DNA of 57,300 nucleotides, from the IMG/VR virus record IMGVR_UViG_3300030521_000001, positions 1 through 57,300 of that record. One strand, 5' to 3'. The position numbers were made by a program, and so were the translations under genes. The stretch is from a virus. Positions within the stretch are counted from its first letter, which is position 1. Each line of letters opens with the position of its first letter. The notes beneath the pieces were generated by a model, which was given only the letters and a program-made list of their open reading frames with translations, did not search any database and was not told where the DNA came from. Positions 6,634-27,417 of this stretch are shown here, one piece after another.

Positions 6634-8175
6634 TTACTTGCGCTCCATATTGACCAGTACCAGTTCGCTCTTGGCGCGGGTGTACGCCACGTACTGCAGG
6701 TTGCGCTCCTGCTCAAGCTGCCAGTCTTGACGGGCATATGACGACGGCATGTAGAGATTCTCACCCATCAGGAACACGCGCTGCCACTCGCGGCCCTTGG
6801 ACTTGTGGACGGTCGACAGCGTCAGCGTCTTGCGCCGCTCGCCGTCCGCGTCCTGGAACATGTCGGTGATCTTGTCCTTGAGTTCGTCGACGGTCTTGAC
6901 GGCGTCGGCGATGACCAGCACGGTGTCGACCCGGTCCTGAATAGCCTGCGCCTGGGTCTCCCGGCCTTTCGCGTTGAGTTTCTGCACCTGTTGCTCACAG
7001 TAGGCCGTCATGCGGTCGCGCAGCGCCGGAAGGCTCTTGGCGGACGAGAAACGGTCTATCAGCTTGATCAGGCCGGCGCCGATGTCGCGACCCTCGACGT
7101 GGCACGGAATGCCGCGCTTGATTAGCTGAAATGCAGTTTCGACCAGGGGCTTGGTGTTGCGGCAAAGGATGGCGTCGTTAATCTGGTCGAACGCCTCTTC
7201 AGTCTGTCCGGCCATACGGTAACCATCGATACGCTGCCAGAACACTTGCTCGTCAGTATTTACCACGGTCCCTTCCGGCGCCGTCTCGTGCGCCTCGATG
7301 TGGCTCACGACTTCCCGCGCCTTGGCGACGACGGCCTGGGGGCAACGGAACGTTACGGTCATCGGGAGTTCGACGCAGTTGAACTGCTTGATGGTCTGCC
7401 CGATGCTGTCGTTATCGGCCCCGGTGAAGCCGTAGATCGCCTGATGACGGTCACCGATGAAGAAGGCGCGGCCGTTGGACTTAAGCATCTTGCGGGCCAG
7501 CGCGCGACGGGCTGGATTGGCATCCTGCCACTCGTCGCCGATCACCCAATCATTGCCGAACATTCGCACCCCGGTCACCACCGGCAGCCAGATCATGTCG
7601 TCGAAGTCGATGATTTCAGAACCCATGTCCTTGTGCCATTGCAGGCCCTTGACGGTGTATTCGACGCCGGCTTTGATCAGGCCCTCGTCCTCGATCTCGT
7701 AGGCAAGGTCGAAATGATCAATAATGTCGTAGTATAACTTTTCGTCAGTCATCGCGCCGTGTAGTCCTACCGCGCGCTGCTTGGCCAGCGAGATCAGCTT
7801 GGACGTGAATGTCTGCAACGACTTGGGAACCTGAAGCGCGACGTGCATCATGTCGGACTTCTCGCGGGCGGCCTCGGGGCCGGCCTTGACGTTCTTGTAG
7901 GCGTAGCGCCAGGCGCCGAACCCGAACGAGTGGCAGGTGCCGAACCGAACTCGGTTGCCGAAGTTCAGCTTAAGTTCCCGCGCCTTGGTCTCGAACTCAA
8001 GGGCTGCCGACTTGTTGTAGGCCATCACGGCGACGGAACCTTCGGTCTCGGCAATCATGAACATCGCGGTAGTGGTCTTGCCGGCGCCGGCCACTGCCTC
8101 GCCGAAGCCCGAGCCCCGGTGGGTGTGGGGGAAATTGCGGACGACTTCCTGCTGGGGGGAAAGGGTCTTAGTCAT
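6634..8175 (-). CDS. UvrD/Rep/PcrA-family (SF1) DNA helicase.
   Basis: 513 aa. Walker A GEAVAGAGKTTTAM; motif II IGDEWQDANP; motif III FIGDRHQAIYGFTGAD; motif VI LSTVHKSKGREWQRVFL. Preceded by a promoter and the CATATAGGAG leader. Confidence 0.85.
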   Translation of the reverse strand: MTKTLSPQQEVVRNFPHTHRGSGFGEAVAGAGKTTTAMFMIAETEGSVAVMAYNKSAALEFETKARELKLNFGNRVRFGTCHSFGFGAWRYAYKNVKAGPEAAREKSDMMHVALQVPKSLQTFTSKLISLAKQRAVGLHGAMTDEKLYYDIIDHFDLAYEIEDEGLIKAGVEYTVKGLQWHKDMGSEIIDFDDMIWLPVVTGVRMFGNDWVIGDEWQDANPARRALARKMLKSNGRAFFIGDRHQAIYGFTGADNDSIGQTIKQFNCVELPMTVTFRCPQAVVAKAREVVSHIEAHETAPEGTVVNTDEQVFWQRIDGYRMAGQTEEAFDQINDAILCRNTKPLVETAFQLIKRGIPCHVEGRDIGAGLIKLIDRFSSAKSLPALRDRMTAYCEQQVQKLNAKGRETQAQAIQDRVDTVLVIADAVKTVDELKDKITDMFQDADGERRKTLTLSTVHKSKGREWQRVFLMGENLYMPSSYARQDWQLEQERNLQYVAYTRAKSELVLVNMERK

Positions 8176-8240: not shown

Positions 8241-8737
8241 GTAATATCGTGCCATTTGATAACGTCCCGGCAAAAGGCTAAGAGTTGGGCGTCCGTCCCT
8301 GAGTTCCTAGCACTGTTGGCTTGCCAAGTCACCAATCGTATATTTCGGATCGTGTAACCTTTACGTTGGTTCTTACGGTCTATCGACAATGAGTCCAAGG
8401 AATGTTTACCCTTTAGACACAATTGGCGGCCAGTCAGAACGCACAGGCCGTTTTGCCTGTAGTACAACGCCTCTAATTGTTCGAAAGTTAGATTGCACGG
8501 CGTGACCCCCGCAGTGCGCGTCCTTAACCGGTGTAGCTTAGCTTTTAAGTATCCGCGCAGTGTGTTCTTCCATGCTCGTTGCAAGTCCCGCATCCGGTTA
8601 GGGTTGTTAGTTCGCCATTCTTTGCCCCGTGCGTTAGCCCGTTTCTTGTTTGCCGCGTAGTACCGGTTATTGCGATCGTTGATCGCCGCCTTGTTGGTGA
8701 CGTAATACTTGTGTTGCTTATCCGATAGCTTAGACAC
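8237..8737 (-). CDS. HNH-like endonuclease or Zn-ribbon DNA-binding protein, free-standing between two helicase genes.
   Basis: 166 aa, very basic N-terminus with repeated KYY/RYY..N motifs. C-terminal GLCVLTGRQL...SLSIDRKNQRKGYTIRNIRLVTWQANSARN resembles degenerate HNH/endonuclease VII motifs. Confidence 0.4.
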   Translation of the reverse strand: MSKLSDKQHKYYVTNKAAINDRNNRYYAANKKRANARGKEWRTNNPNRMRDLQRAWKNTLRGYLKAKLHRLRTRTAGVTPCNLTFEQLEALYYRQNGLCVLTGRQLCLKGKHSLDSLSIDRKNQRKGYTIRNIRLVTWQANSARNSGTDAQLLAFCRDVIKWHDIT

Positions 8738-10145
8738 GTTTGCGTTTCCTGACTTCCGCCACTAGCTCGTCCATGATACTAGCAACGTCTTTTTTCCGAG
8801 TCAAGGCTTTGATGACCAGAGCATCCATGGGGCTGGACACCAAGTCATAAATATTACAATCAGTATCCTGCGCCCCCCGGTGGTTTCGGTCTTCCATCTG
8901 TGCGCGCCAGTAATACGAATAATCAGATTCGAAAAAAATCATTGTACTACAGCGGTCGCGCCCCGCTTGCCCGATCAAGGTGTGGCCGCGCGCCGTGGCG
9001 TCCTGTTGCCCGAGGCAGACCCGGCACTTGGATTCGTCGTTAAACATTCTCTTTTGTTCGGTAATCGCCGTAGGCGACATTCCGCCCTTGATCCACGCCG
9101 GGTTACATCCCGCCTCTGATAGTGCCGTGTACAACATTTCGCCGCAGGCCTTGTAGTAATAGCTGACTATTACCTTGCCGGGGGAGGTGCCGATGATGTC
9201 AAGCGTCGCCTTAAGCTTGGGGTTGTCCTTAGGCGTCTCGAAGAAGTAATATTTGCCCTGGTCGAGCAATACGCAGCTTGAAATCTGACGCAGTTTGTTC
9301 ATCTGCGCCAGGATGATTTCCACCGAGATCTCGTCGCCATCGACGATGGCGTAAAATTCCTGCATCATCGTTGTATAGTGCTCGATCTGGCGCCGGCTCA
9401 TCTCCAGGTGCACCGAAGTGTAGATCTTGGGTGGCAGGTCCTTGCGCCAGTCCTTCTTCAGCGCGCGGAAGGTACAGGTGTCGAGGACCCGTGCCAGTTC
9501 CTCCTCGTTGCGAACGCCGACCACCTGCTTGCCGAGGAAGCCTCCCATCTCGGCGAAGCGATTGCGGAACACCACGGGTTCCATACCGTTGAACTGACCA
9601 AGACAGCGTAATTGACCAAAGTAGTCTCGCACGTCCTGCGTCAAAGGTGTGCCATTTAATTCCCGCACCATTTTGGCGCGCTTGGCTAGTTCAAGCACCG
9701 CCTTGAACGTGGACGTCGCCGGATTCTTGACGGCGGTAGACTCGTCGATGGTCAACATGCAACGGCGTTGATCGAACAGTTTAATCAGTTGCTTAAGCGT
9801 GTCCTTCTCGCGCACGGCTTCGTAGTTGATCGCATACTGACAATACTCCGCATCGAACGGTAATGGATATTTCGGCCAGTAGCCAGTGGGTACCCACGGC
9901 ACGCCCCATTCTTCCGGCGCCAGCGCCCAGTCCTGCTTGAACGAGTTCGGTACCACCACTAAATTGATGTCGGTATCGTCGGATTCGATGAATTCGTTAA
10001 GCGTCAACGCGGTCTTGCCCAGGCCTTGCTCTAACCACTGCCCAAACTTAGGCTTGCCGTGCGAGCGACGCATGGCCTCGGCCTGCACCGCCCAGGGCTT
10101 GTTGCCAAATACGGCGTGCTTAAGGTGCCAGGGGACGGTCATCAT
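8730..10145 (-). CDS. SNF2-family (SF2) helicase/ATPase.
   Basis: Motif I LEQGLGKTALTL; motif II LTIDESTAVKN; motif III LNGTPLTQDVRDYF; motif VI WRAQMEDRNHRGAQ. ATGATG at 10145-10140 chosen as the start. The ORF extends to a TTG at 10214. Confidence 0.8.
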   Translation of the reverse strand: MMTVPWHLKHAVFGNKPWAVQAEAMRRSHGKPKFGQWLEQGLGKTALTLNEFIESDDTDINLVVVPNSFKQDWALAPEEWGVPWVPTGYWPKYPLPFDAEYCQYAINYEAVREKDTLKQLIKLFDQRRCMLTIDESTAVKNPATSTFKAVLELAKRAKMVRELNGTPLTQDVRDYFGQLRCLGQFNGMEPVVFRNRFAEMGGFLGKQVVGVRNEEELARVLDTCTFRALKKDWRKDLPPKIYTSVHLEMSRRQIEHYTTMMQEFYAIVDGDEISVEIILAQMNKLRQISSCVLLDQGKYYFFETPKDNPKLKATLDIIGTSPGKVIVSYYYKACGEMLYTALSEAGCNPAWIKGGMSPTAITEQKRMFNDESKCRVCLGQQDATARGHTLIGQAGRDRCSTMIFFESDYSYYWRAQMEDRNHRGAQDTDCNIYDLVSSPMDALVIKALTRKKDVASIMDELVAEVRKRKRV

Positions 10146-10359
10146 AATCTCGGCAGATTTCAAAATACCAGGCTTTAGTATCAAAACCGTGTCCACTGAC
10201 TCTGGTGGATTCAAACCAGTACTGCCGCTCCGCCGTGGGGGGACCCAATTTGCAGTGTACTGCTTTTTCCACCAACATACTTTGCATCAGGTCAACTACC
10301 GTTTCCGCAGGCGCCTTGTCGTTGTCCGAACACCACCGTACGAAGTGTGTAATGGTCAT
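10120..10359 (-). CDS. Hypothetical protein (79 aa), translationally coupled to datZ.
   Basis: Its ATG overlaps the datZ stop (ATGA at 10356-10359). No recognisable motif. Confidence 0.45.
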   Translation of the reverse strand: MTITHFVRWCSDNDKAPAETVVDLMQSMLVEKAVHCKLGPPTAERQYWFESTRVSGHGFDTKAWYFEICRDYDDRPLAP

Positions 10360-10958
10360 GTTATTCCTGTCGATCCGTATTTCCAGTGCGCTTGCAGCGC
10401 CGGGTAGATCTGGTCATTCCATTGCGCGCGGTGAGCGGTCAGGTCGCCGCCCTCGTGAATTAACTCTCCCAATTCGTGCCAGGCCACGACCAGGTTTTCC
10501 ATCGCGTCCTGATGCAGCGGCGCCAACACGGTGTTGCCCATACGTTGTTCCAGGATCAGAAATATGCAGGCGTCGACCTTGTCGGCGACCCTGACGATCT
10601 TGGCGATGCTGTCACCCCACATGCTTTCGTAGATCGCGTCGAGTTGGGCTTCGACCCCCGGCAGTCGTTCCTTCATCTGTTCGGTCACGAAGTTGGACAG
10701 TGCGCCGGGGTCGACGATCTGCTTCTTTACCGGTGAGATGACGTCGCCGGTAAAGGTCTCCTCGATGTCGTGCATCAGCGCCGCGAAGGTCAGGTCGGCG
10801 TATGGCCCCGGCCACTCGATCAGCCGCGCGACCTGCAGCGCGTAGTAAGAAACATAGAACGAGTGCTCGGCGACGCTGTCCTTGTTGAAAGTACGTACGA
10901 TGGACCAGCGCTGGACCACAGAGGCGGTGCGAAGTTCGGGGGGGAAAAGGGTGTTCAT
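10356..10958 (-). CDS. datZ: HD-domain dNTP triphosphohydrolase, DatZ-like (dATPase of Z-genome phages).
   Basis: 200 aa. HD-superfamily metal motif H..(AEHSFYVSYYA)...LMHDIEETFTGDV, YfbR-like. ATGA overlap with mazZ. Third gene of the purZ-mazZ-datZ operon. Confidence 0.7.
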   Translation of the reverse strand: MNTLFPPELRTASVVQRWSIVRTFNKDSVAEHSFYVSYYALQVARLIEWPGPYADLTFAALMHDIEETFTGDVISPVKKQIVDPGALSNFVTEQMKERLPGVEAQLDAIYESMWGDSIAKIVRVADKVDACIFLILEQRMGNTVLAPLHQDAMENLVVAWHELGELIHEGGDLTAHRAQWNDQIYPALQAHWKYGSTGIT

Positions 10959-11314
10959 GGTTCCTCGCTCATAATCTCGGCCGACGTAATAATGCGGTTC
11001 CGGGCCTTGACCCTCGCCAGCAGCTTGTCGCGGATGATCAGCGCAAAATTTGCGATATCAATGCATTCCTTGGCTGCCTCGGCCTCGCCTAGGAACTCGT
11101 AAGCCACGTCGAACTCCATCAGTTCGATCTTGAGCAGTTTGATGTGCGCCTCGATCGGCTGGTCATGCCAGCCGGTCTTGTGATCGTTCTTGCGAAGCTT
11201 GGTCTCCATGGCCAAGGCAAATTCGGCGACTTCACGCCGAATTACGTGTGTAGACCGGTCATCGAGACTAATGAAACAAACCTTGTCGGTGATCATGTCG
11301 TGTTCGATAGTCAT
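10955..11314 (-). CDS. mazZ: MazG-like all-alpha NTP pyrophosphohydrolase, MazZ-like.
   Basis: 119 aa from the internal ATG 11314, which overlaps the purZ TGA (ATGA). Acidic helix motifs EVAEFALAMETKL, ELMEFDVAYEF, ECIDIANFALIIRD are typical of MazG-type enzymes. Confidence 0.65.
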   Translation of the reverse strand: MTIEHDMITDKVCFISLDDRSTHVIRREVAEFALAMETKLRKNDHKTGWHDQPIEAHIKLLKIELMEFDVAYEFLGEAEAAKECIDIANFALIIRDKLLARVKARNRIITSAEIMSEEP

Positions 11315-12414
11315 AGTTTGTCTCCGTCGATGATGTCGTCCGTCGTCGGCCCCCAGGCCGTGACGACCTGGGTGCACTCGTTGCGCCGGCCATACTTGTT
11401 GCAGAGTTCGCGCACCTTGGCGACTACCGTCTTGGCCAGTTCCTTGTTCGGCAAGTAGTCCATGAACGAGACGTAGACGACGTTCGGCCGGGTCTGCGCG
11501 ATCGCCTCGTAGACCTGCTGTTCTGAGAACGTAAACACCCTACGGATACGCTTGGTGACGGTAGTGATCTCGGCCGCGACGCCAAGTTCGTCCCAGGTGA
11601 TCTCGTGCTGGTCGGGAAAACAACCACCGGAATAACCATTTTCGTGCATGTTACGTGCTTCGTTGAGACTGCCGACTTTGATCGGAAAAGTGCGAATGAC
11701 CAGCATCGACCGGTGATAGAAGTGCGGGTGTATCCCGGCGTCGCTCATCGCCTGACCCACGGTGCAGTTGCGCGACGTAGTGTAAGGATAGAAGGGGCCG
11801 TCCACGGACAGCGAATGACCCTGCGGCACCTCGACCAGCACGGACTTGCCGGTAAGCATCTCGGCGTTCAAGTCGATGCGATGAACGAATTGCTGCAGTT
11901 TGTGTATTTCAGGACCGTACCAGTGCACCGGGTTGACCAGGTCCTTGGCCAGGAACCCCGATCGCAACACCTTGCGCGACAGCGCCTCGCCGACGCCTTT
12001 CCGGGTCGAGGCTATCTTAGTCTGCGCGCTGTCGTCGCGCATTTCGGCGGTCTTGCAGTCCGGCGTGATGATCGCGGCGTTGGGGTGAATGGCCAGTCCA
12101 TTGTGCAGGACTTGGGGATTTTCATCTAATTCTCTGAGTAGGATTTCGGGATCAATCACGCTCCCTGCGTTTAGATAGGTAATACACGGCCGGTATAGTG
12201 AATAAGTCGGCAGGTGAAACACCACCTTGGTCACACCGTCGTGGGTCGAGGTGTGACCGGCCTGAGCCCCGGCATTTGTTGTTGCAATGTCGAAGGGCCG
12301 TAGCATCGGGGCCTTGGTCGCTAGCCACGCCGCCGCCGCACCCTTGCCCTCGGAACCCCACTGGCCACCGAGAAGGAACGAGGCCTTGCCCGGCTTGGAA
12401 AAGAAATCGATCAT
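11311..12414 (-). CDS. purZ: Adenylosuccinate-synthetase homolog, PurZ-like (N6-succino-2-amino-2'-deoxyadenylate synthase).
   Basis: 367 aa, the short PurA-type size. P-loop GGQWGSEGKGA versus PurA GTQWGDEGKGK (Asp replaced by Ser). Other PurA-like motifs: QAGHTS (PurA NAGHT), STRKGVGEA (TTGRGIGPA), VEVPQGHSLSVDGPFYPYTTSRN ([23 protein letters not shown]), EITTVTKRIRRV (GATTGRRRR). Immediately followed by the MazG and HD genes. Confidence 0.8.
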   Translation of the reverse strand: MIDFFSKPGKASFLLGGQWGSEGKGAAAAWLATKAPMLRPFDIATTNAGAQAGHTSTHDGVTKVVFHLPTYSLYRPCITYLNAGSVIDPEILLRELDENPQVLHNGLAIHPNAAIITPDCKTAEMRDDSAQTKIASTRKGVGEALSRKVLRSGFLAKDLVNPVHWYGPEIHKLQQFVHRIDLNAEMLTGKSVLVEVPQGHSLSVDGPFYPYTTSRNCTVGQAMSDAGIHPHFYHRSMLVIRTFPIKVGSLNEARNMHENGYSGGCFPDQHEITWDELGVAAEITTVTKRIRRVFTFSEQQVYEAIAQTRPNVVYVSFMDYLPNKELAKTVVAKVRELCNKYGRRNECTQVVTAWGPTTDDIIDGDKL

Positions 12415-12416
12415 GT

Positions 12417-12785
12417 TCAGCCCTTTTTGTGCCCAATTCTATCAAGTACCAGTGTAGCATAGCCGACTATGTCTTGCCAATGGTCCCTGTGGTTAGGGTC
12501 ACCACAGACAATTCTGCCGATTTTGGTAGCAATCAGGTCTAGAGATTCTTGTTGTACGAACGACAACTGACCCCAATTCGGGCTGCCCCGTACGACAGCT
12601 TTGATAGCTCCGATCGTGGTAGCCATGATCGTGTAGTCACCGTGGGTCACGCCGCGAACCTGCTCGGGGGGCGGTTCATTGGGCCAAGTCTGATACTGAT
12701 GCCCCTTCGGTAACCCCTGCACTATTGCGCACGTCTCCCGGTGCACTTGCCCCGTGCCAGCGCCGCAATCACACTTGGCCAACAT
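12417..12785 (-). CDS. Small Cys-containing protein upstream of purZ; possible MazG-like/nucleotide-binding helical protein.
   Basis: 122 aa. N-terminal CDCG...C cluster, then HGDY..IGAIKAV...ESLDLIATKIGRIV.GDPNHRDHWQDIVGYATLVL, which resembles small phage NTP-pyrophosphohydrolase-like domains. Stop lies 2 nt before the purZ ATG. Confidence 0.35.
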   Translation of the reverse strand: MLAKCDCGAGTGQVHRETCAIVQGLPKGHQYQTWPNEPPPEQVRGVTHGDYTIMATTIGAIKAVVRGSPNWGQLSFVQQESLDLIATKIGRIVCGDPNHRDHWQDIVGYATLVLDRIGHKKG

Positions 12786-13239
12786 TTTTGTACTCCGCGA
12801 AAAGACCCAGCATCGCCCTGATCTTGCCCAACCGCCCGTCCTTGTCCCCTAGTGGGACATGTGACCGCTGCATAACTTGCCATGACGTATGTTCCATGAC
12901 TTCGTACGTGTACAACGCCATTCGCAATGTCTTGATCGGCTCACGGGCGCCCTTGGTCTGGATGAACGACACCACGCCGGTCAGCATTCCGGCCCCGTGC
13001 CACTCCTTCAGGAATTTTCTCTGAGGGGTCGTAACGTCAAGTTCCCAGACATGGTTCTTGGTTCTGTCGGACAATGCAATCTGCTTGGCCTCCAGCCACA
13101 TCGGGCGGCAATTGGGCAGCTTGATGAGGAGATCGACGACGCCGACCAGGAAGCGATTGTTAAGCTTGATACCGGCGCCTCCGACGTCCTTGACGGCGTC
13201 GATGATGAGTTGCTGCATAGCGGTTTCGAGCATGGCCAT
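12769..13239 (-). CDS. PD-(D/E)XK nuclease (VRR-NUC-like or resolvase-like).
   Basis: 156 aa. Motif GVVDLLIKLP....PMWLEAKQ fits D...(E/D)xK. Confidence 0.5.
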   Translation of the reverse strand: MAMLETAMQQLIIDAVKDVGGAGIKLNNRFLVGVVDLLIKLPNCRPMWLEAKQIALSDRTKNHVWELDVTTPQRKFLKEWHGAGMLTGVVSFIQTKGAREPIKTLRMALYTYEVMEHTSWQVMQRSHVPLGDKDGRLGKIRAMLGLFAEYKNVGQV

Positions 13240-13241
13240 GA

Positions 13242-13466
13242 TTATTTGCCCCTACGCCCGTTGTCGTAGTCGTGTCCCGCCAGCCCACACCAGCCGTTGC
13301 CCCGGTATTCACGCCACATCATGCAGCCGGACGCTATGCAACGGGTCTCGTCGTGAACCCCTTGTCCGCCAGGGTTCATGTCGACGTGGTGATTTACAGC
13401 CATCCCGACCGTCAACCCGGTGCGCACCATCGGGCACCACTTGGTCTTGGCTTCGTCTTCAGTCAT
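13242..13466 (-). CDS. Small Cys-rich hypothetical protein.
   Basis: 74 aa. KWCP...RCIASGCMMW motif, common in small phage proteins of unknown function. Confidence 0.5.
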   Translation of the reverse strand: MTEDEAKTKWCPMVRTGLTVGMAVNHHVDMNPGGQGVHDETRCIASGCMMWREYRGNGWCGLAGHDYDNGRRGK

Positions 13467-13735: not shown

Positions 13736-15667
13736 TCATTGTTCTGCGCCGAAAGTTGACTCTGCCCAAGTCGTACCTTCCCCCGCGTCAATCCGCATTG
13801 GTACGTCTAGGGGTATCATATCATTGGGTCCAAACCGTGTCATGATGTCTAAACACTCATTATACACTACTCGATGCGCCTCGTCAAACTGGAAATTGAT
13901 CGAGTCATGTACGTTATTGAGCAAATCTACGGGACGTCCCACACTTTCCAAATAATCGTCGATTTCGACGAGCTTGCTTTTCAAAACGTCCGCATTACCT
14001 CCAGACAGGATACGGTTCAATGCTACATACGACAAATCGTGGCGCGGCAAATGGAGTCGGCGACCAAGCAATGTCACCATAAAGCCTCGCTTAACGAAAA
14101 CACGTGACATATTCTGTTGCGCAGTGCGAATTTCTGGCATGGCCCGGAAGTACGCGCGATATTGTTCATCCACTTCTCTAGGGTCGACTTTGTATTTTTC
14201 AACGATAACGCCTTTACCACCACCAGTCAATAGAGTTTGATTTATCCTTTTTCCAAATTCCCTAGCTGCTTTCTTTTGCTTAGCGTCCCAGTCGTCATAG
14301 CCCTTGCTGAGGTTCATGGCCCTGGTGACGCCGGTATGGGCGTCGAACTTGGGGTCATTGCGGTAGCCGTCTAGCAGCACCTTGCAACGTGAATAATAAG
14401 CCAGCAACGTGGGTTCACATTGGCGGTAGTCGGCCTCGGCAAACACCATGCCGTCGTCCGGAACAAACCCACCACGCAGCATCCGGCCTCGTACTTCGTC
14501 GCGCTTGTGGGCCTGCTGCAGGTTGGGGGAATCGCACGACAGCCGGCCGATGATGGTACCGTATTCGTCGCCGCGCATCTGGTTGAAATTGGCGTGCACG
14601 CGTCCGTTCCAGATATGCTGTTCCAGCAGCGGCGTGATGAAGGAATTACGCATATGTACGATACGACGAATCTTGATGATCTCGCGTCCCGGCGCCGACT
14701 TTTCCAACCAGCTTTCGGGGAACGACGGCTTCCTGGTCTTCGGCGTCATCGGCCAGTCGGTCACGCCGTGCTTTTCCATGTACCACTTGACGTCCGACCC
14801 TGCCTGTACCGATGCGTTCTCGGGGTCCGGGAACTCGCGCATCAGTTCTGAAATCTGGCGGTTAAGGTCCTGTTGCAGTTGTTCGAAATAGCTCCGGTCC
14901 ACCTTGATGCCCCGGCATGTCATCCGCGCCAGCACCCGGATCAACCGACTCTCGATGTCGTGTACCTTGGCGAGCGAAGTATAGACCGGCTCGCCGTTGA
15001 CGCGTTTGAACTCCACCTGCTCGTTGATCTTAACCATTTGCGCGTCGCGCAGCTGCCAGGTGGAGGTGCCGTCACCTTCCGCATAATCAGTGGCCATGGC
15101 GTCATCACCACGCAACTTGTAGAACCACCCCATGGACTCGCGATCGCTTTTGATCTCGGGAAATTTTGACCGCAAGTACGCATACATCTGGGCCGCTAAT
15201 TTGGGTTGAACCCCCCGACGCAGACAGCAGGCCTCTAGACTAAATTTACCTCCGAACTCATCGATAAGCGGTTCGTTTATTTGCGTGTCCCAGAACTGAG
15301 GCGCGAAAGCCTGTGTACCGATCAGGCGGTAAACAAACTTAAGGTCAAACCCGCCGATATTATGACCTCCGATTACCCGCCCTTGCCTGAACAACTTGCC
15401 TAGAAGGGCCTTTTCCCACGCGGCCATCTTCCCGTCCCACCCGTGGGCGTCGACAGGGCCATTAACGCCACCAATGTTACCGTTGCCGACGTGACGAACA
15501 GGAAGATAGAAAGAATCTTGTGGTTTGGGGCTAAAAGTAATGACATGCCCGACCACATGGCACCGTTGCCACAAGAGACCAGAAGTTTCAGCGTCATAGA
15601 CTATGTCTCCCTTGTGACTATCGAGGCGGTTCATTACGACTTGCAATTTGCTGGTGATTTGTTTCAT
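13736..15667 (-). CDS. dpoZ: Family-A DNA polymerase with 3'-5' exonuclease domain; candidate DpoZ.
   Basis: 643 aa from ATG 15667 (TGAAATG junction with the upstream gene). Exo I IVYDAETSGL; motif A AEADYRQCEP; motif B region AAREFGKRINQTLLTGGG; motif C NNVHDSINFQ. About 1.3 kb upstream of purZ in the same operon. The PolA call is firm (about 0.9). The DpoZ subfamily assignment is contextual. Confidence 0.6.
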   Translation of the reverse strand: MKQITSKLQVVMNRLDSHKGDIVYDAETSGLLWQRCHVVGHVITFSPKPQDSFYLPVRHVGNGNIGGVNGPVDAHGWDGKMAAWEKALLGKLFRQGRVIGGHNIGGFDLKFVYRLIGTQAFAPQFWDTQINEPLIDEFGGKFSLEACCLRRGVQPKLAAQMYAYLRSKFPEIKSDRESMGWFYKLRGDDAMATDYAEGDGTSTWQLRDAQMVKINEQVEFKRVNGEPVYTSLAKVHDIESRLIRVLARMTCRGIKVDRSYFEQLQQDLNRQISELMREFPDPENASVQAGSDVKWYMEKHGVTDWPMTPKTRKPSFPESWLEKSAPGREIIKIRRIVHMRNSFITPLLEQHIWNGRVHANFNQMRGDEYGTIIGRLSCDSPNLQQAHKRDEVRGRMLRGGFVPDDGMVFAEADYRQCEPTLLAYYSRCKVLLDGYRNDPKFDAHTGVTRAMNLSKGYDDWDAKQKKAAREFGKRINQTLLTGGGKGVIVEKYKVDPREVDEQYRAYFRAMPEIRTAQQNMSRVFVKRGFMVTLLGRRLHLPRHDLSYVALNRILSGGNADVLKSKLVEIDDYLESVGRPVDLLNNVHDSINFQFDEAHRVVYNECLDIMTRFGPNDMIPLDVPMRIDAGEGTTWAESTFGAEQ

Positions 15668-15668
15668 T

Positions 15669-15938
15669 TCACCACCCGTCCCGGTCGCGCGGGTCGCTCT
15701 TCGGCTCGTCGTCATCGTCCATCGCGAAGTCGGTGTCGCCGACGAACTCCTCGTGCAACTTTTGAATCCAGGCCAGTTGCTTCGGCGACACGAACACTCG
15801 TTCGCCATATTCCTTATCCTTGGCGATCATGTCGGTCAGGAAATTGCGCGGCGTTTCCTTCATGCCGCCGACTTCGTCCGCCAGTTCCTCCAACATCTGG
15901 TGGAACCGGGCGTAATCCTGTTCATTAAGTGCGGGCAT
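15669..15938 (-). CDS. Hypothetical acidic protein (89 aa).
   Basis: Internal ATG (MPALNEQDY) chosen; the ORF extends to 16031. Acidic C-terminus DDDDEPKSDPRDRD. Confidence 0.45.
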   Translation of the reverse strand: MPALNEQDYARFHQMLEELADEVGGMKETPRNFLTDMIAKDKEYGERVFVSPKQLAWIQKLHEEFVGDTDFAMDDDDEPKSDPRDRDGW

Positions 15939-16458: not shown

Positions 16459-17466
16459 TCAGTAGTTCGGCGACCCTTCCGGCTCGTTGGCCCCGGCAGC
16501 CTCCGGGTCCTCCTGCAAGCTGTCGACGTCCTTGATGTTGAGCCCGGACGACTTCAGCGCCATGTGCATGTCCTTGTACAAGGCGTACTGCTCGGGGTCG
16601 GTGACGATGCCGGCGCCAGTCAATTGGATGTTCTTGTAGTCCTGGCTGGCCGCGTTGTGGTCGTCGAATGATGACAGCATGAACACCGAACCGAACAACG
16701 GCGTCCGGACGGTCTTCAGCTTGGTCATGAACTTGCGCCCAATCTTGATACTGGAACGCTGGAACGTCATCACGGCCGGCATCAGATCCGGGAAGTCCGG
16801 GAACATCATCACGAAATTGTACATCAGCGTTGCGGCCGGGGGCGAGTTGCTGTTGCCGGGGTCCATCGTTCCCCAGTTGGCGAGACCGGACTGTTCGACC
16901 GTAGGCATCAGTTTCCATTTGACCTTGGCCCCGCCGTCCTTGGGGTCGAGCTTCACTTCGAACTCACCGGAGGGCGGCGACCAGTGCACGCCGTCAGGCG
17001 CTCGGGCAATGATGCCGCCACCGTCGCCCCTCGGCCGCCACAGGATGAACTGGCGGTCCATGTAGACCGGCACCACCTTGAACGGCTCGTCGAACATCAT
17101 CTCCGACGCGGTGTGCAGGAAGTGACCCGGCCGCAGTTCGTCGTACAGCGTCAGTTCCTTGGACAGGCCCTGCATCAACTTGAGCCGGGGCATCTCCATG
17201 TCGTTCTGGCCGATGTTCTCCTTACCCATGTCGACGTCGTCGCGCATGTGGGCCGGAAGGTTGGCCGAAGTCGTGGAGGGGGCCGGCGCAGCGGTGCGGA
17301 CGGCAGGGGCATTGTTCAGCTTCTTGATGTCGCGCTTGTCGATTTCCTCGTGCGTCGGCTTGTCGGACGTGGTACGCCCGGTAGCAGCGCCGGCCCGGTT
17401 GACTGGCCTGGTAGCCGGCTTCTCGGGTTGCTTGGGCTGGGTGGTCTTCGTCGCGGTCTTAGCCAT
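16459..17466 (-). CDS. Hypothetical early protein (335 aa); possible DNA-binding or recombination-associated protein.
   Basis: ATG 17466 is preceded by CACATAGGAGAAACGTG. Lys/Pro/Thr-rich basic N-terminus, then a conserved-looking core starting MPRLKLMQGLSKE. No family recognised with confidence. Confidence 0.6.
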   Translation of the reverse strand: MAKTATKTTQPKQPEKPATRPVNRAGAATGRTTSDKPTHEEIDKRDIKKLNNAPAVRTAAPAPSTTSANLPAHMRDDVDMGKENIGQNDMEMPRLKLMQGLSKELTLYDELRPGHFLHTASEMMFDEPFKVVPVYMDRQFILWRPRGDGGGIIARAPDGVHWSPPSGEFEVKLDPKDGGAKVKWKLMPTVEQSGLANWGTMDPGNSNSPPAATLMYNFVMMFPDFPDLMPAVMTFQRSSIKIGRKFMTKLKTVRTPLFGSVFMLSSFDDHNAASQDYKNIQLTGAGIVTDPEQYALYKDMHMALKSSGLNIKDVDSLQEDPEAAGANEPEGSPNY

Positions 17467-17651
17467 CACGTTTCTCCTATGTGTGGCGGTTGCAATTACT
17501 TCCATCAGGCCGGTGTAGACACCTCGGGCCGCTAAGCCTTCCCGCTACTCCGTTTAACAATCCACTCCCCTACTACCTTTGCCGCTAAGCTCGGGACCCT
17601 CGGTTCGTGCTGTTCCCGCTTCCCACTGCGGTCTGCTCCTGCCTTAGTTGT

Positions 17652-18275
17652 TTAGGTCTTGGCCACCGTCGTGTTATTCAGGTCCGAGACCGTGAACAGG
17701 GCTTCCGGCAGGTCGATGTTCTTTTCCCTGAGGCCCTTGGCGTAGGCCGACAGCGTCGAGGCGTTGACGGTGGGCTGGATCAGGTCGCCGGCCTTGTTAT
17801 CGATCAGCCAGTTGTAAGCGTCTTCTTTCTGGCCCGGCATGATCGAGGCTACGACCCGTACCGATAGTCCGACCCGGAAGCCCTCAGATAGCGGCATGCT
17901 GTCGACCATCGCCGCCTCAAACGCGGCCGGAACGGTAAGTTCCTTGGTAACTTTCCATAGGCTTTTAAACTGCTTGAACGCTTTATCTTCCGACAGCATC
18001 CGCTCATTGAGGCGGTGCAACACCACGAAGGCACGGGCCAGTTGAATGGCGCCGGACTTGCCAGCAAACGCCAGTTGCCGCTCCAGGTCAACGTACAACG
18101 CCTCGATAGCCTGCACGTGCTTGATGATCTGCGCGCCGGCTGGTAGCGCGGCGACGATGCTAGCAGGGAGGCTTGCGCTTGGCGGGGTCGGTGAGGTATT
18201 CGACGTTTGCGATGTCTTCGAGACCTCGGGTGAGGTCTTCGATTGTGACGGTTTCGACTGCGAGTTCTTGGCCAT
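17652..18275 (-). CDS. Hypothetical early protein (207 aa).
   Basis: ATG 18275 is preceded by AACATAGGAGACACTG. Ser/Thr/Pro-rich N-terminus. Confidence 0.6.
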   Translation of the reverse strand: MAKNSQSKPSQSKTSPEVSKTSQTSNTSPTPPSASLPASIVAALPAGAQIIKHVQAIEALYVDLERQLAFAGKSGAIQLARAFVVLHRLNERMLSEDKAFKQFKSLWKVTKELTVPAAFEAAMVDSMPLSEGFRVGLSVRVVASIMPGQKEDAYNWLIDNKAGDLIQPTVNASTLSAYAKGLREKNIDLPEALFTVSDLNNTTVAKT

Positions 18276-18669
18276 CAGTGTCTCCTATGTTTGTCGAAGG
18301 TAGCACGGGTCGCGGGGTCGGCACAAGATGGTAGCTGATCAGAACCGGAATGTAATCGGAAATCTTGCGGTCGAAGCGCAGGACGCGGAATGACCCCCGC
18401 GCGGCCAGCATCGCCACGAACGCAACGAGTTGCAAGTGATCGCCGGCAATCAGCAAGTAGTCCACACTGGGATTGAACCCCGCAGCCGCAGCGTACAATG
18501 CTTGGCGGTCGTCAGCGGGTAGACACCAGTCTCCGATATTTGGGGATTCTTCGTAGGTGTTATCCAGTTCATCCCCGTACACGTAGCCCTTGGTGACGTA
18601 GCGCAATTCGCCGAAGCGCAGGGCCTGGGAAATGTCGTCGCGGACAGGATGGACGACAAAGACGGTCAT
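18160..18669 (-). CDS. Hypothetical early protein (169 aa).
   Basis: ATG 18669 is preceded by GACATAGGAGAACTGA. The 3' end overlaps the next gene by 116 nt, and that last part looks non-protein-like. Confidence 0.5.
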   Translation of the reverse strand: MTVFVVHPVRDDISQALRFGELRYVTKGYVYGDELDNTYEESPNIGDWCLPADDRQALYAAAAGFNPSVDYLLIAGDHLQLVAFVAMLAARGSFRVLRFDRKISDYIPVLISYHLVPTPRPVLPSTNIGDTDGQELAVETVTIEDLTRGLEDIANVEYLTDPAKRKPPC

Positions 18670-20494: not shown

Positions 20495-21262
20495 TCACGA
20501 ACCTGTGATTTTATACGCGGCGCCGAAGGCCCTTGCCATGTAGACCGGCACGCCGTCGCCGATAGCTTCATACAAGGCACGCTGCCAGTGTACCTTTCGG
20601 TCCCTGTTTGGGCCGGGGTCGAACCAGTCGGGTATCTTGTACCACGCCCTCGGAATCTTGAATCCCTGATGATACGCGCATTCCTCGACCGTCAACTTAC
20701 GGCCATAGAACCGAGACGCCCGCAGCCGGTCCGACGCACAACCCTTGTACTCGGTAGCTGAAATGCACGGGCAAATGTCCGGTACCCAGCGCCGGTAGTC
20801 GCGGAATATCTTGGGGAACCGATAGTTGCCCCCCACAACACGGTTGCGATTCTGTATCGGGGTCTTGAGGAACTGGGCAGCATTGTAGGTGAAACCCCAC
20901 TCGTTGCCCTTGCTGCCCTGTATGGTGACGTTCTCAACCCACACCACCGGACACTTGCCGTCCAGGTTATCGAGGCACCACGGCAGGTAGTCCCTCTGGT
21001 ATTCAAGGTTTCGATAACCCCCCTTGCGGGTCAGGTCCTTGATCGCGGTCGAACGCTGGGCGCAAGGCGGTGACGCCCACACCGCGTCGAAACCACGCAG
21101 GTCAAACTTGGTGGCGTCCCCCAGCACGGAATTACCGCTACCTGTCAGTTTCGACAAATGGTGCTTGACCGGGTGAAGCTCGACGCCGACGCATTCATGC
21201 CCGGCCTGTTCAAGGCCAAGACGCGCCAGTCCGGCGCCGTCAAACAGCACTGCTATGCGCAT
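20495..21262 (-). CDS. DNA (cytosine-5)-methyltransferase.
   Basis: 255 aa. Motif I LFDGAGL; motif IV ASPPCAQRS; motif VI VWVENV; motif VIII QNRNR; motif X GDGVPV. Confidence 0.8.
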   Translation of the reverse strand: MRIAVLFDGAGLARLGLEQAGHECVGVELHPVKHHLSKLTGSGNSVLGDATKFDLRGFDAVWASPPCAQRSTAIKDLTRKGGYRNLEYQRDYLPWCLDNLDGKCPVVWVENVTIQGSKGNEWGFTYNAAQFLKTPIQNRNRVVGGNYRFPKIFRDYRRWVPDICPCISATEYKGCASDRLRASRFYGRKLTVEECAYHQGFKIPRAWYKIPDWFDPGPNRDRKVHWQRALYEAIGDGVPVYMARAFGAAYKITGS

Positions 21263-24605: not shown

Positions 24606-25166
24606 TCAACCAGCGACGGCATTCTTGCTGCTGACCCGGGCGTGGACGCTACAGTACGATTTCCTTAGTAGCGCCGGCCGTCCGCAGTACATCCCACCGT
24701 CGAGCGGCCAGCGACAGTCGCCGTCTTCCAGGTCCGCGAACGCCACCGGGTCGCACCTAAGCTTCAAATCGACGTTCAGGCTGAAATCAGTGCGGGGCGG
24801 CACCGACTTGGACAGACGCGACGGGCCGAAATTTAACGAGGCCTTCTCGTCGGGAGGCAACGCTTCTACCGCCACGGGCCTGGGCTTCTTCGGCGTGAAC
24901 AGGAAGTCCGCAACCGCCACAGGCCTGGGCGGCTTTGGCTTGCGGGCCGGCCGATACTTACACGTGGCGGGGTCGTATTTGCCGTTCACGTGCCGGTGCC
25001 GCGCGCCGATCACGGCGTTGCGAGTAATCCCCGTGGTGTTGAACTCTTCGTTCAAGGTCACGGCGATCTGGGCGTCGGACGTGCCGGCCTTGTATAATTC
25101 CTTCAACCGGTCGATGGCGCCTTCGCGCTTCCAGTTAAAGTCGAGCTTGCTAAAAGTCTGGCGCAT
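24606..25166 (-). CDS. GcrA-like cell-cycle regulator homolog.
   Basis: 186 aa. N-terminal W..E..IDRLKELYKAGTSDAQIAVTL......GITRNAVIGARHRH; Pro/Lys-rich linker; C-terminal FADLEDGDCRWPLDGGMYCGRPALLRKSYCSVHARV. This matches the GcrA architecture. Confidence 0.75.
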   Translation of the reverse strand: MRQTFSKLDFNWKREGAIDRLKELYKAGTSDAQIAVTLNEEFNTTGITRNAVIGARHRHVNGKYDPATCKYRPARKPKPPRPVAVADFLFTPKKPRPVAVEALPPDEKASLNFGPSRLSKSVPPRTDFSLNVDLKLRCDPVAFADLEDGDCRWPLDGGMYCGRPALLRKSYCSVHARVSSKNAVAG

Positions 25167-27417
25167 TAGTTTCCCTCGCTGGCGTCCCGCTCTCCGTCTG
25201 TTCAGGCCAGTTTATCACCTGACCCACATACTTGTCAAACCCCTTGCGGCACTGGTCGAGCGGCGGGAAGTCGATCCACGACAGTTGACGATTACTTAAC
25301 AACGTCCACGACTGCGGGATGCCAAGTTCTCCAACCAGTTCGTTGGAATAGTCGCGCTGGTAGCGCTGGATTGAGCGCCCAATCATCTTTTCAAGGGTCT
25401 GGTTAAACGCGGCGGGGTTAGGGATGTTGCGCACGCCGCGATTACGCAAGGACACTTCCATTGCGGCGTACAGCGCGGGTGAACCGACGACGCGCGGCCA
25501 GTCCTTCTTGCTGTCCTGCGCCCAGTTAAGTCTATCCGGCAGCAACAGCCCCGATAGCAGCGTTTCCATCCACCAGGCGTCGATCGGGGGCAGGTTCTGC
25601 GCCTTAAGATCCGACAGTGACTTGTTCTTGACGTTTGATCGTGCCAGCTTGGCGTCGTAGTCGAACTCCAGCAGGTACCTGAACAGTGCGGCCGGACCAC
25701 CTGCGTCCTTCTCGGCCACTACCTTGTCGATCAGGTCGTCCGGGGCCTTGCGCTGGTCCATGTCGATCACGGTGTAACGACGGTCGCCGGGCATCACGGG
25801 AGCGGCAAGATGGTTTGGGTTGCACAGCATGATCAGACGCAGAAAGTTGCGCACTCTGGTGGCGTCAATGCCCTTGGGCTCGGCCATCCGGAACTCATCA
25901 GTGATCAAAGACCGGATGATTGAGGCGTGCTTTCGATCGCCGCCGTATAGTGCTTCTTCGGAATGCAGCAACAACGTCCCGGCCAGATGCCGATTGAACG
26001 ACCCAGTCAAGTGTTTGTCCTGCGTCACAACCGTATAGGCAGGTCCGAGGATCACACCAAAATAAGCCACCATCAGCGATTTGCCGGCCCCCTCCGGTCC
26101 GATAATAACGGGTGCGGTCATAGATTTCTTCATCGGCTCGCGTACGATGTTCGCCATCCAGTTGATCAGCCAAAACGCCATCTCCTCGTCGCCGCCGCAA
26201 ATGACGTCGAACACCAGGTCCAGATACGCCTCGCAGCGTGTGTCGTAGTCGTCCCCTTCGTCGGGCCTGATGGCCCACCCACCCCACAGGTTGAGAATCT
26301 TGCCGTCGTCCTCTTCGCCGGGCCTGAAGTCGACGTTGTCGTAAGACCGGCGCCTAGGCGATTTCAGCCATAACGCCGCCTTGGGAATGGTCTTTTCCTT
26401 GCCGTCAATCTCCACCGTGGTGTAGTCGGTCCCCATCTTGTTGAGGAAATCATCCTTCATCATGAAGACGGGGGATTCGCCGGGACCGGCATCGACCGAG
26501 GCAATGCGAAACTTGCCTCCAACCAGGACGCAGGCAAAACGATCATTGTACTCTTGCAACAAGTTAATCGTAGGAGAGCCGGCCCATTCAAGCAGTCGGT
26601 CCACAATGACGTCGTTGTGTAGTTGTTTACGAAGAACACCAGCGCCGCTAATTTTCTTTCCCGCCTCACCGCGTCGGTAAGTAGCACGAACCGTCGGTAA
26701 TCTTGATTTGTCGTCATCGTCGGTATAATCCATCACGGCGTTGATGAGATCTTCCGCCTCGTCGGCCGTCCAGTCGAGATAGAACAGCATGCCGGCCAGG
26801 TGCTTGGCCGGCTCGTTGTGATAGCCGTCCGCCCAGATGTGGCGTACGATGAGAGTAGCGATGGCGACCTTGCGCACGGCGCGGGACAATATGGCCGTGG
26901 TGACGCTGGTCACTTCGGGGAAGGCAAGGTCCGACCATTCAATGGCTTCGCCGGACGTTTCGTGTACGGAACCCGGCATGACGGTCTGATGACCCCCATC
27001 GCCTCGCGCCTCGACGATAGTGGAATCGGCCGTTCGTACTGGATCAATAAACGCTTGCTTGTCGAAATCCGGAGTATCAACCTTGTAAAGATAATGCGAT
27101 CGAGGTTTAGACTTCCGTCCAAACACCGCCGTAGTTGGAGGTAAGAAACGTGCTGCAAAGTAAATGGCTTCATTACAATCACAGTCAATATCGACAGGAC
27201 CGTCAGAGCGGGGCCCAGTAACGATGCCCACGCCATAATTGTTGTCCCTCCACAGTTCGTCGCCGGGTGGTTTGTAACCCGAGGACACGTAGGTTTTGAA
27301 TATGGCAGCCTTGGATTGCGGGTGTAGAGGCACTGGCTTGAAGGAATTTTTACGCAACCAGGCCACCGTCTGGATCACGGCGTCTGATGATGGGAACTTG
27401 ACGACCTGCCTAGCCAA
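25150..27417 (-). CDS. Bifunctional primase-polymerase (AEP/PrimPol) fused to an SF3 (D5-like) helicase.
   Basis: 755 aa. AEP motifs VDIDCDCNEA, SHYLYKV, GHQTVMPGSVHETSGEAIEW. Walker A VIIGPEGAGKSL and Walker B LLLHSEEAL in the C-terminal half. Confidence 0.8.
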   Translation of the reverse strand: MARQVVKFPSSDAVIQTVAWLRKNSFKPVPLHPQSKAAIFKTYVSSGYKPPGDELWRDNNYGVGIVTGPRSDGPVDIDCDCNEAIYFAARFLPPTTAVFGRKSKPRSHYLYKVDTPDFDKQAFIDPVRTADSTIVEARGDGGHQTVMPGSVHETSGEAIEWSDLAFPEVTSVTTAILSRAVRKVAIATLIVRHIWADGYHNEPAKHLAGMLFYLDWTADEAEDLINAVMDYTDDDDKSRLPTVRATYRRGEAGKKISGAGVLRKQLHNDVIVDRLLEWAGSPTINLLQEYNDRFACVLVGGKFRIASVDAGPGESPVFMMKDDFLNKMGTDYTTVEIDGKEKTIPKAALWLKSPRRRSYDNVDFRPGEEDDGKILNLWGGWAIRPDEGDDYDTRCEAYLDLVFDVICGGDEEMAFWLINWMANIVREPMKKSMTAPVIIGPEGAGKSLMVAYFGVILGPAYTVVTQDKHLTGSFNRHLAGTLLLHSEEALYGGDRKHASIIRSLITDEFRMAEPKGIDATRVRNFLRLIMLCNPNHLAAPVMPGDRRYTVIDMDQRKAPDDLIDKVVAEKDAGGPAALFRYLLEFDYDAKLARSNVKNKSLSDLKAQNLPPIDAWWMETLLSGLLLPDRLNWAQDSKKDWPRVVGSPALYAAMEVSLRNRGVRNIPNPAAFNQTLEKMIGRSIQRYQRDYSNELVGELGIPQSWTLLSNRQLSWIDFPPLDQCRKGFDKYVGQVINWPEQTESGTPARETNAPDF

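Follow-up and report, generated by a model that had tools for sequence, protein, structure and literature searches.

A preference for a non-canonical base pair is known from only two groups of DNA polymerase, and it has yet to be settled which of their residues bring it about. These are the phiVC8-like DpoZ enzymes (cluster 18, or DpoZ-2; Protein Data Bank (PDB) entry 7PBK; phages SH-Ab 15497, PMBT28 and ZP6 are further sources) and the Wayne-like DpoZ enzymes (cluster 19, or DpoZ-1), both of which are family-A polymerases (PolAs) linked to PurZ-family genes in phages with genes for using 2-aminoadenine (Z) instead of adenine. In the O-helix of PolAs the Tyr at position B4 (Tyr766 of Klenow) is otherwise strictly conserved, and Phe at this position is the sole change common to both DpoZ clades, whereas the residues described at B3 (Phe762 of Klenow) are Phe, Tyr or Leu only (PMC8599892, PMC10201439). 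The authors of the PolA reclassification asked whether specialisation for Z had arisen in other PolA subfamilies (PMC10201439). Here we analyse a PolA gene at positions 13736-15667 (minus strand) of IMG/VR record IMGVR_UViG_3300030521_000001, a complete, 57,300-bp virus record that has direct terminal repeats and comes from a podovirus-like phage; this whole stretch is referred to as the window. The initial annotation of the window proposed the gene, which lies near purZ, as a candidate DpoZ. We found that its product (window PolA) lies outside both published DpoZ clades and carries Gln at B3 and Thr at B4, and its lineage would, as judged from sequence, constitute a large third PurZ-linked family-A lineage with an active-site helix unlike any described.

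The gene and its motifs are listed below; conservation refers to an alignment of 32 homologues of window PolA unless another alignment is named.

13736-15667, minus strand: family-A DNA polymerase of Klenow type, 643 amino acids (Pfam PF00476 DNA_pol_A, 9e-40; PHROG 17 'DNA polymerase', 3e-84)
15587-15595, minus strand: Exo I motif, D25-x-E27, within VYDAETS (15581-15601); E27 invariant, D25 nearly invariant
15071-15085, minus strand: Exo III motif, Y195-x3-D199; invariant, aligns with Klenow Y497/D501
14411-14434, minus strand: motif A, ADYRQCEP, with catalytic Asp413 and steric-gate Glu418; both invariant, align with Klenow D705/E710
14222-14251, minus strand: motif B (O-helix), KRINQTLLTG, with Gln477 at B3 and Thr481 at B4 (from the translation and an alignment of 118 sequences)
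13898-13912, minus strand: motif C, VHDSI, His587 and Asp588 kept, Ser in place of Klenow Glu883 (from the translation and the family alignment)

The reading frame is open across 13736-15808 (minus strand). The ATG at 15667 lies 1 base past the TGA of the upstream open reading frame (ORF) and is preceded by a purine-rich GGTGGTGA stretch, and the same Met is the start in the 32 homologues; the start at 15667, and with it the coordinates given previously for the gene, is therefore correct. The exonuclease and polymerase motifs that had been quoted (VYDAETS, ADYRQCEP and VHDSI) are all found in the translation. Window PolA consists of a 3'-5' exonuclease domain and a polymerase domain, the 5' nuclease domain being absent. 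D413, R469, K473, H587 and D588 are invariant among the homologues, in keeping with a family-A polymerase. Exo II (HN..FD) and Exo III (YAEGD) can likewise be recognised, and the carboxylates of Exo I (DxE), Exo II (N..D) and Exo III (YxxxD) are conserved as in a proofreading enzyme, with D25, E27, D108, Y195 and D199 being invariant or nearly so. An AlphaFold2 model (predicted local distance difference test score 90.9) contains a helix at residues 462-481 that ends at T481, and a fold search with this model recovered the Klenow fold (template modelling score 0.76), Klenow and Bst Pol I being the best matches. It is the only family-A polymerase of the complete 57.3-kb genome.

The unusual residues of the O-helix are a property of the family and not of this one enzyme. 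Of 118 family sequences, 117 have Gln at B3; at B4 there are 111 sequences with Thr, 5 with Ser and 2 with Ala. The position of Klenow Glu883 is occupied by Ala (89), Asp (17) or Ser (12), motif C reading HDS in window PolA and HDA in most of its relatives, while no variation is seen at the catalytic Asp, Lys, Arg and His. Our literature search found no description of this clade or of a Gln/Thr motif B. (A 2025 metaGPA preprint, 10.1101/2025.10.22.683976, reports the novel DpoZ homologs phiDpoZ1 and phiDpoZ2 from aquatic viromes, which may overlap with the window clade.) As a separate observation, the position of Klenow Gln849, a minor-groove-reading residue whose counterpart in Bst, Gln797, reportedly forms a hydrogen bond with the O-helix Tyr, is Ser in window PolA and in its two closest relatives in a 58-row alignment (P0005 and P0017); across the 118 sequences this position is Gln in 95, Ser in 12 and Ala in 11.

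Downstream of the polymerase lie three genes of the kind that accompany phiVC8-like DpoZs:

11311-12414, minus strand: purZ (best PDB matches phiVC8 PurZ, 6FM1, and S-2L PurZ, 7ODX)
10955-11314, minus strand: mazZ-like gene for a MazG pyrophosphohydrolase (34% identity to the MazG of Ochrobactrum phage vB_OspP_OH, 29% to ZP6 MazG)
10356-10958, minus strand: datZ-like gene for an HD phosphohydrolase (Pfam YfbR-like, 2e-18; PHROG 'dATP triphosphohydrolase'; PDB DatZ 6ZPA, E = 0.0017)

The start of purZ is 1,321 nt downstream of the polymerase stop, in agreement with the distance of about 1.3 kb noted previously, and the three genes together lie 1.3-3.4 kb downstream, a DpoZ-like context that is kept in relatives. 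Window PurZ has Ser at the position of the PurA catalytic Asp (GSEGKG), and the mazZ-like gene likely starts at the ATG at 11314 rather than at 11377.

This linkage extends across the relatives of window PolA. A word-index search returned 612 homologues, the best 120 of which are at least 46% identical and many of which lie on 50-70-kb contigs, and when 1.84 billion representatives were searched with a profile, about 90 clusters with scores of 340-1057 bits stood above a plateau of other PolAs. In a first scan of IMG/VR, made with an alignment as the query (a single-protein query matched one locus only), PurZ was encoded 0.4-3.6 kb downstream in all 33 loci that had both a PolA with at least 32% identity and downstream DNA, and was mostly followed by DatZ and an SNF2 helicase. 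By comparison, 22 of the 23 loci that were fragmentary or below 30% identity were without PurZ downstream, and the one locus that did have it (L076) falls with the phiVC8-like clade. When the scan was repeated from seeds that were more distant members, it matched 553 stretches, and the wider set agreed with the first on linkage to PurZ. The conserved module is polymerase - (nuclease) - purZ - mazZ - datZ - SNF2 helicase. Note that in the 91-kb record of locus L102 (G001) PolA lies near 35 kb, PurZ at 75.9-76.8 kb and an HD gene at 75.2-75.7 kb; polymerase and purZ are therefore not always closely linked, and a look at 10-kb flanks can overlook PurZ. (Absence of PurZ was checked genome-wide for five records.)

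The clade consists mostly of uncultured phages, and vB_OspP_OH (OH; MT028492, PolA QIG66084) is the only isolate that we found in it. OH is also the closest isolate to the window, its PolA being 32.7% and its PurZ 38.9% identical to those of the window, and it has the same gene order (PrimPol ... PolA - nuclease - PurZ - MazG - x - HD - helicase). Its PolA belongs to the same superclade and likewise has non-aromatic residues at B3 and B4 (Met/Ser) and HDS at motif C. OH differs in having a 41-kb genome and in that its PolA falls in a sister Met/Thr subclade rather than in the Gln/Thr clade. A literature search for OH together with PurZ or 2-aminoadenine found nothing on its polymerase or DNA composition.

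To place window PolA we used as references the PolAs of annotated phage records, including record AY576273. By BLASTP, window PolA is 23-27% identical to nine phiVC8-like DpoZs, about 26% identical to the nearest non-Z PolAs (Ab18, PaMx11 and VpKK5), 25% identical to that of SE13 and 23.7% identical to that of phiJL001; there was no match to Wayne DpoZ. The phiVC8-like DpoZs, in comparison, are at least 42% identical to phiVC8 DpoZ. Both a PDB sequence search and the fold search ranked Klenow above DpoZ 7PBK. In our careful tree (IQ-TREE, LG+C20 with posterior mean site frequencies, 58 rows), window PolA, its metagenomic relatives and OH form one clade (ultrafast bootstrap 99, SH-like approximate likelihood ratio (SH-aLRT) 94) that every bootstrap tree (100%) recovered; a separate clade (99/92) holds the phiVC8-like DpoZs, the non-Z phiJL001, VpKK5 and SE13 types form a third, and Wayne is far off. 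Window PolA is therefore outside both published DpoZ clades. The branching order of the window, phiVC8-like and non-Z clades differs between trees: a quick tree makes the two PurZ-linked clades sisters with a support of 11, and the careful tree groups the window clade with the non-Z clade, with weak support. Uniting the two PurZ-linked clades costs 0.26 log-likelihood units (approximately unbiased (AU) test, p = 0.489), so that a deep common origin of the two is neither shown nor rejected.

The proposal of a candidate DpoZ thus holds in part. Window PolA is the sole PolA of its phage and is tightly linked to a conserved Z-cluster, but it belongs to neither the phiVC8-like nor the Wayne clade, a placement that the initial annotation had named as one half of what would speak against its proposal. 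Wayne-like DpoZs have in common with window PolA a linkage to the PurZ family, a PrimPol-helicase partner, loss of the B4 Tyr (to Phe) and HDS at motif C; they differ in being related to D29-like PolAs, in having no significant BLASTP match to window PolA and in their context, which is PurZ0/DutZ/DmtZ, whereas the window has PurZ/MazZ/DatZ and not PurZ0/DutZ. Nor is window PolA phiJL001-like (cluster 11), as indicated by the separate clade and the residues (Gln/Thr versus Leu/Tyr). The phiJL001-like and the VpKK5/SE13-type non-Z PolAs (cluster 11 and neighbours) are similar to window PolA in length, in having insertion 1 (described below) and in having a homologous primase-helicase partner, and are as close to it in identity as the DpoZs or slightly closer. 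Their B3 is Leu or Phe, however, their B4 is Tyr, their motif C is HDE and they lack a Z-cluster.

We also examined window PolA for the published hallmarks of phiVC8-like DpoZ (PMC8599892), using an L-INS-i alignment. Insertion 1, in the palm loop between strands 7 and 8, is present as a six-residue loop (QMRGDEYGT versus QMKGEDGGT) but is not diagnostic, because non-Z VpKK5 also has it. Insertion 2 (a loop within helix O) and insertion 3 (at the fingers tip, between helices O1 and P) are absent, the R-x3-K spacing in the one case and the length in the other being those of Klenow. In place of the L455/F459/G548 signature, window PolA has Gln and not Leu at B3, Thr and not Phe at B4 and Asn and not Gly at motif 6. 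The extended E1/E2 exonuclease helices are present (residues 158-168 and 175-184 of the AlphaFold2 model, aligned with those of phiVC8); long E1/E2 helices are reported in non-Z phiJL001-like PolAs too. Window PolA and the phiVC8-like DpoZs are therefore alike as Klenow-type PolAs with a 3'-5' exonuclease, insertion 1 and extended E1/E2 helices, encoded beside purZ/mazZ/datZ and with a homologous primase-helicase; both have lost the B4 Tyr, and motif C is HDS in phiVC8 and in window PolA. They differ in identity (23-27%), in clade and in insertions 2 and 3 and the signature residues. A preference for Z has moreover been measured for the phiVC8-like enzymes, whereas any such preference of window PolA would be a prediction.

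The replacement of the B4 Tyr follows the distribution of PurZ, in one direction. In our first set of 58 sequences, Tyr at B4 was absent from 36/36 PurZ-linked PolAs and present in 22/22 others. A two-way rule, by which PurZ and the loss of Tyr would always go together, had to be rejected when wider sampling (the profile search and the second IMG/VR scan) yielded PurZ-linked PolAs with Tyr; what remains is that, in this sample, the B4 Tyr is lost only in PurZ phages. (An independent-pairs contrast on the 58-row tree offered too few independent contrasts to reach significance.) Trees of the wider set, from a quick IQ-TREE run and a FastTree run, recovered a superclade (support 100) that comprises basal Leu/Tyr members, a Met/Asn group and a crown (SH-aLRT 98). 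Among the basal Leu/Tyr members, seven (L084, L088, L115, L117, L097, L098 and L101) have PurZ adjacent and L102 has PurZ-DatZ 40 kb away; no PurZ was found in the 65%-complete record of L108, the sister of L102. The crown is made up of the Gln/Thr clade (support 100), which holds window PolA, and a sister clade composed of a Met-or-Leu/Thr clade, including OH (Met/Ser), and a small Leu/Tyr group (L095, L113 and L122). Two members of this small group, L113 and L122, keep the B4 Tyr while nested in the Thr-bearing crown (SH-aLRT 99 and 98), and their genomes, both 100% complete, have no PurA/PurZ homologue and no YfbR-type HD gene; in L122 (9986-14794) and L113 the same PolA - EndoVII - SNF2 backbone is present and the Z-cluster is absent. 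Conversely, all 65 non-Tyr rows of the superclade with at least 4 kb of downstream DNA are PurZ-linked (63 IMG/VR loci, the window and OH). Together with the published clades, the B4 Tyr has been lost at least four times, to Phe in phiVC8-like and in Wayne-like enzymes, to Asn, and to Thr (once or twice), always in a PurZ background. (In one member of the Met/Thr clade, IMG/VR locus L133, motif C aligns as YDS and not HDS, which would remove a His that is invariant elsewhere; either an error in sequencing or an inactive gene copy could explain this.)

Since, in our sample, loss of the B4 Tyr is confined to PurZ-bearing phages, we read window PolA as a functional analogue of DpoZ that is adapted to Z-DNA. 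Specifically, we think it probable that window PolA is the replicative, proofreading polymerase of a PurZ/MazZ/DatZ phage and belongs to a PolA superclade of its own, beside the phiVC8-like DpoZs and the non-Z phiJL001/VpKK5 types; its role as replicase, the occurrence of Z in the phage DNA and any preference for Z are what we infer from the findings above. In such a phage the PrimPol-SF3 helicase described below would unwind and prime, PurZ would make the Z precursor, and MazZ and DatZ would reshape the deoxynucleotide pool by supplying dGMP and removing dATP, after which window PolA would copy Z:T-containing DNA. Any bias for Z over A would most likely arise as proposed for phiVC8 DpoZ, through a weaker grip on the nascent or terminal pair to which loss of the stacking Tyr would contribute, such that an active exonuclease with long E1/E2 helices would receive the weaker A:T termini more often than Z:T termini. 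The bulk of adenine exclusion would fall to DatZ.

Several points weigh against this interpretation. For the window phage, as for the whole clade, Z content and Z preference are predictions made from sequence. Eight PurZ-bearing relatives retain the B4 Tyr, four of them also with the canonical HDE at motif C, and a change in motif B is therefore not obligatory for replicating the genome of a PurZ phage. S-2L shows that DatZ can by itself keep adenine out when the polymerase is not selective, and those who solved the DpoZ structure regard B4 as an unlikely site for telling A from Z (both PMC10201439). Linkage to PurZ within one phage lineage may be mere vertical co-inheritance. Finally, the non-Z reference phages other than phiJL001 were taken to be free of Z by assumption rather than from a genome-wide check.

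These points bear most directly on a possible, if somewhat doubtful, alternative, in which window PolA is an ordinary, non-selective replicase that tolerates Z, adenine exclusion is left wholly to DatZ and MazZ as in S-2L, and motif B has drifted. In favour of this, substitution in S-2L is complete although its polymerase is not selective (PMC10201439), PolAs with unchanged Leu/Tyr and HDE motifs serve PurZ phages of the same superclade, and normal cells tolerate Taq Pol I with Phe in place of the Tyr (PMC8599892). Drift does not readily account, however, for repeated losses of the B4 Tyr (to F, F, N and T) that all occurred in PurZ backgrounds, with none in the sampled non-PurZ PolAs, or for nested PurZ-less relatives having kept or regained it. 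Moreover, the B3 Gln and B4 Thr stay near-invariant where identity within the clade has fallen to about 40%, which argues for selection rather than drift.

That window PolA is a divergent phiVC8-like DpoZ (DpoZ-2, cluster 18), descended from one ancestral PurZ-linked polymerase that later split deeply and thus new in nothing but its sequence divergence, appears unlikely to us. The quick tree, with its support of only 11, and the AU test are compatible with such a union, as are insertion 1, the long E1/E2 helices, the PurZ/MazZ/DatZ-type Z-cluster and the homologous primase-helicase that the two have in common, and the viral PolAs of PurZ phages in NCBI have been reported as one group (PMC12884076). 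The careful tree instead puts the window clade with the non-Z clade, albeit with weak support, identity to the DpoZs is no higher than to non-Z PolAs, and insertions 2 and 3 and L455, F459 and G548 are absent. Furthermore, the basal members of the superclade have canonical LY/HDE motifs, which indicates that the Z-type residue changes arose inside the window lineage and not in a shared ancestor.

More tentative still is a bolder version of our interpretation, one that rests on analogy and that we regard as rather improbable at present, in which the Gln/Thr O-helix would be a third, mechanistically distinct solution to replicating Z-DNA. Here the hydroxyl of the B4 Thr (or Ser or Asn) would be in direct contact with the 2-amino group of Z in the minor groove, so that the enzyme would sense Z itself and not just the stability of the pair, and the superclade would record a stepwise passage from a Leu/Tyr, HDE enzyme to a Z-specialised one after PurZ was gained, with Tyr kept or regained in the absence of PurZ. 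The basis for such a contact is the simulated Bst mutant Y714S, in which Ser714 hydrogen-bonds the amino group of template G (PMC12756729), the same 2-amino group that Z carries. The engineered Y766S (Klenow) and Y714S (Bst) enzymes resemble window PolA in having a small hydroxyl side chain in place of the O-helix Tyr (PMC12756729); they differ in being laboratory mutants that trap a G:T mismatch complex, whereas the Thr of window PolA is natural, conserved and paired with Gln at B3.

The initial annotation had also noted a PrimPol-SF3 helicase fusion in this genome, and the domain matches bear this out:

25150-27417, minus strand: archaeo-eukaryotic primase (AEP) PrimPol domain fused to a D5/SF3-type helicase (Pfam Prim-Pol and DUF5906; NrS-1 helicase domain, 6K9C)

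Over its C-terminal region (about 390-420 aligned residues) the fusion is about 30% identical to phiVC8 p28, the ZP6 primase and gp33 of non-Z phiJL001, and similar fusions occur in 377 phage records, including those of non-Z phages of Pseudomonas and Bordetella (PaMx74 and CN1 among them). The accompanying statement that the division of labour between the two enzymes is open was too strong, given that the Z phages phiVC8, ZP6, BUCT555, Wayne and OH normally pair a PolA with a primase or PrimPol-helicase, both being encoded in each. The fusion is best read, from its sequence relationships, as a predicted primase-helicase partner in the replisome and not as an alternative replicase. That it might be the main replicase, as proposed for S-2L, where the PrimPol alone replicates the phage, with PolA left to repair or gap filling, we consider highly improbable: the DxD and His motifs of active AEP enzymes can be seen by eye in its PrimPol domain, but its homologues accompany PolAs in phiVC8, ZP6 and non-Z phiJL001, such fusions are widespread in Z and non-Z phages alike, the catalytic and proofreading motifs of the PolA are complete and the enzyme is kept beside the Z-cluster in every relative of the first scan, and when the fusion was searched against PDB sequences, with no separate comparison to S-2L PrimPol, the NrS-1 primase helicase domain was the only match, so that no close solved PrimPol relative was detected.

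The lineage of window PolA adds a third large group of PurZ-linked PolAs, which comprises about 90 clusters at 50% identity, with hundreds of IMG/VR loci, and shows a more radical change at the sole position common to both DpoZ clades. The lineage also comes with natural controls, namely close relatives that have PurZ and Tyr and relatives (L113 and L122) that have neither PurZ nor the change, and the role of the O-helix Tyr in the handling of Z becomes directly testable with a few enzymes and point mutants. The lineage may in addition be a source of new polymerases for making Z-substituted DNA.

In the window, the polymerase gene forms part of an early block on the minus strand that runs from the PrimPol-SF3 helicase gene through a GcrA-like gene, a C5-methylase-like gene and Pam3 gp32-34-like genes to the polymerase, and from there through three or four small ORFs, purZ and the mazZ-like and datZ-like genes to those for an SNF2 helicase, endonuclease VII and a UvrD-like helicase. 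The remaining features of this block are as follows:

13859-13887, minus strand: promoter-like site in the 3' end of the polymerase gene, TTGACG-17-TATAAT, 11/12 consensus (near-consensus, sigma-70-like; a pattern match only)
12417-13466, minus strand: small co-directional ORFs between polymerase and purZ, of 74 amino acids, 156 amino acids (weak nuclease-like match) and 122 amino acids (DUF6378-like)
8730-10214, minus strand: SNF2-family helicase, located after the Z-cluster and conserved there in relatives
6634-8175, minus strand: UvrD-like helicase, at the end of the early block

The 156- and 122-amino-acid ORFs occupy the same place in many relatives. The idea that polymerase and purZ are part of one transcription unit survives with a qualification. 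The genes are co-directional and tightly packed, and a search for a convincing minus-strand terminator between polymerase and purZ found none, which makes co-transcription plausible from the sequence; the strong promoter-like site inside the polymerase gene, on the other hand, might give the small ORFs and the Z-cluster a transcription start separate from that of the polymerase. The window yielded no matches in Rfam and tRNA scans.

Upstream of the polymerase, the three genes that directly precede it (16459-18669, minus strand) match Pfam families named for gp34, gp33 and gp32 of cyanophage Pam3 and may encode replisome accessories. Further upstream, a 255-amino-acid ORF (20495-21262, minus strand) matches a C5 cytosine methylase profile over only the first approximately 75 residues of that profile and may represent a methylase, truncated or strongly diverged, in a phage whose DNA is predicted to contain Z.

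We also observed that approximately one-tenth of the representative homologues of window PolA are 850-990 amino acids in length and match the profile in two pieces, with the break near profile positions 363-401, in the palm immediately upstream of motif A. These are P0023, P0118, P0126, P0129, P0130, P0137-P0141, P0155, P0160, P0164 and P0166 (none is in the window). Pfam HNH_3 and intein-splicing domains were found in both P0023 and P0118, and Hint_2 also in P0023. Inteins or homing endonucleases thus seem to have repeatedly invaded this polymerase gene at a single hotspot.

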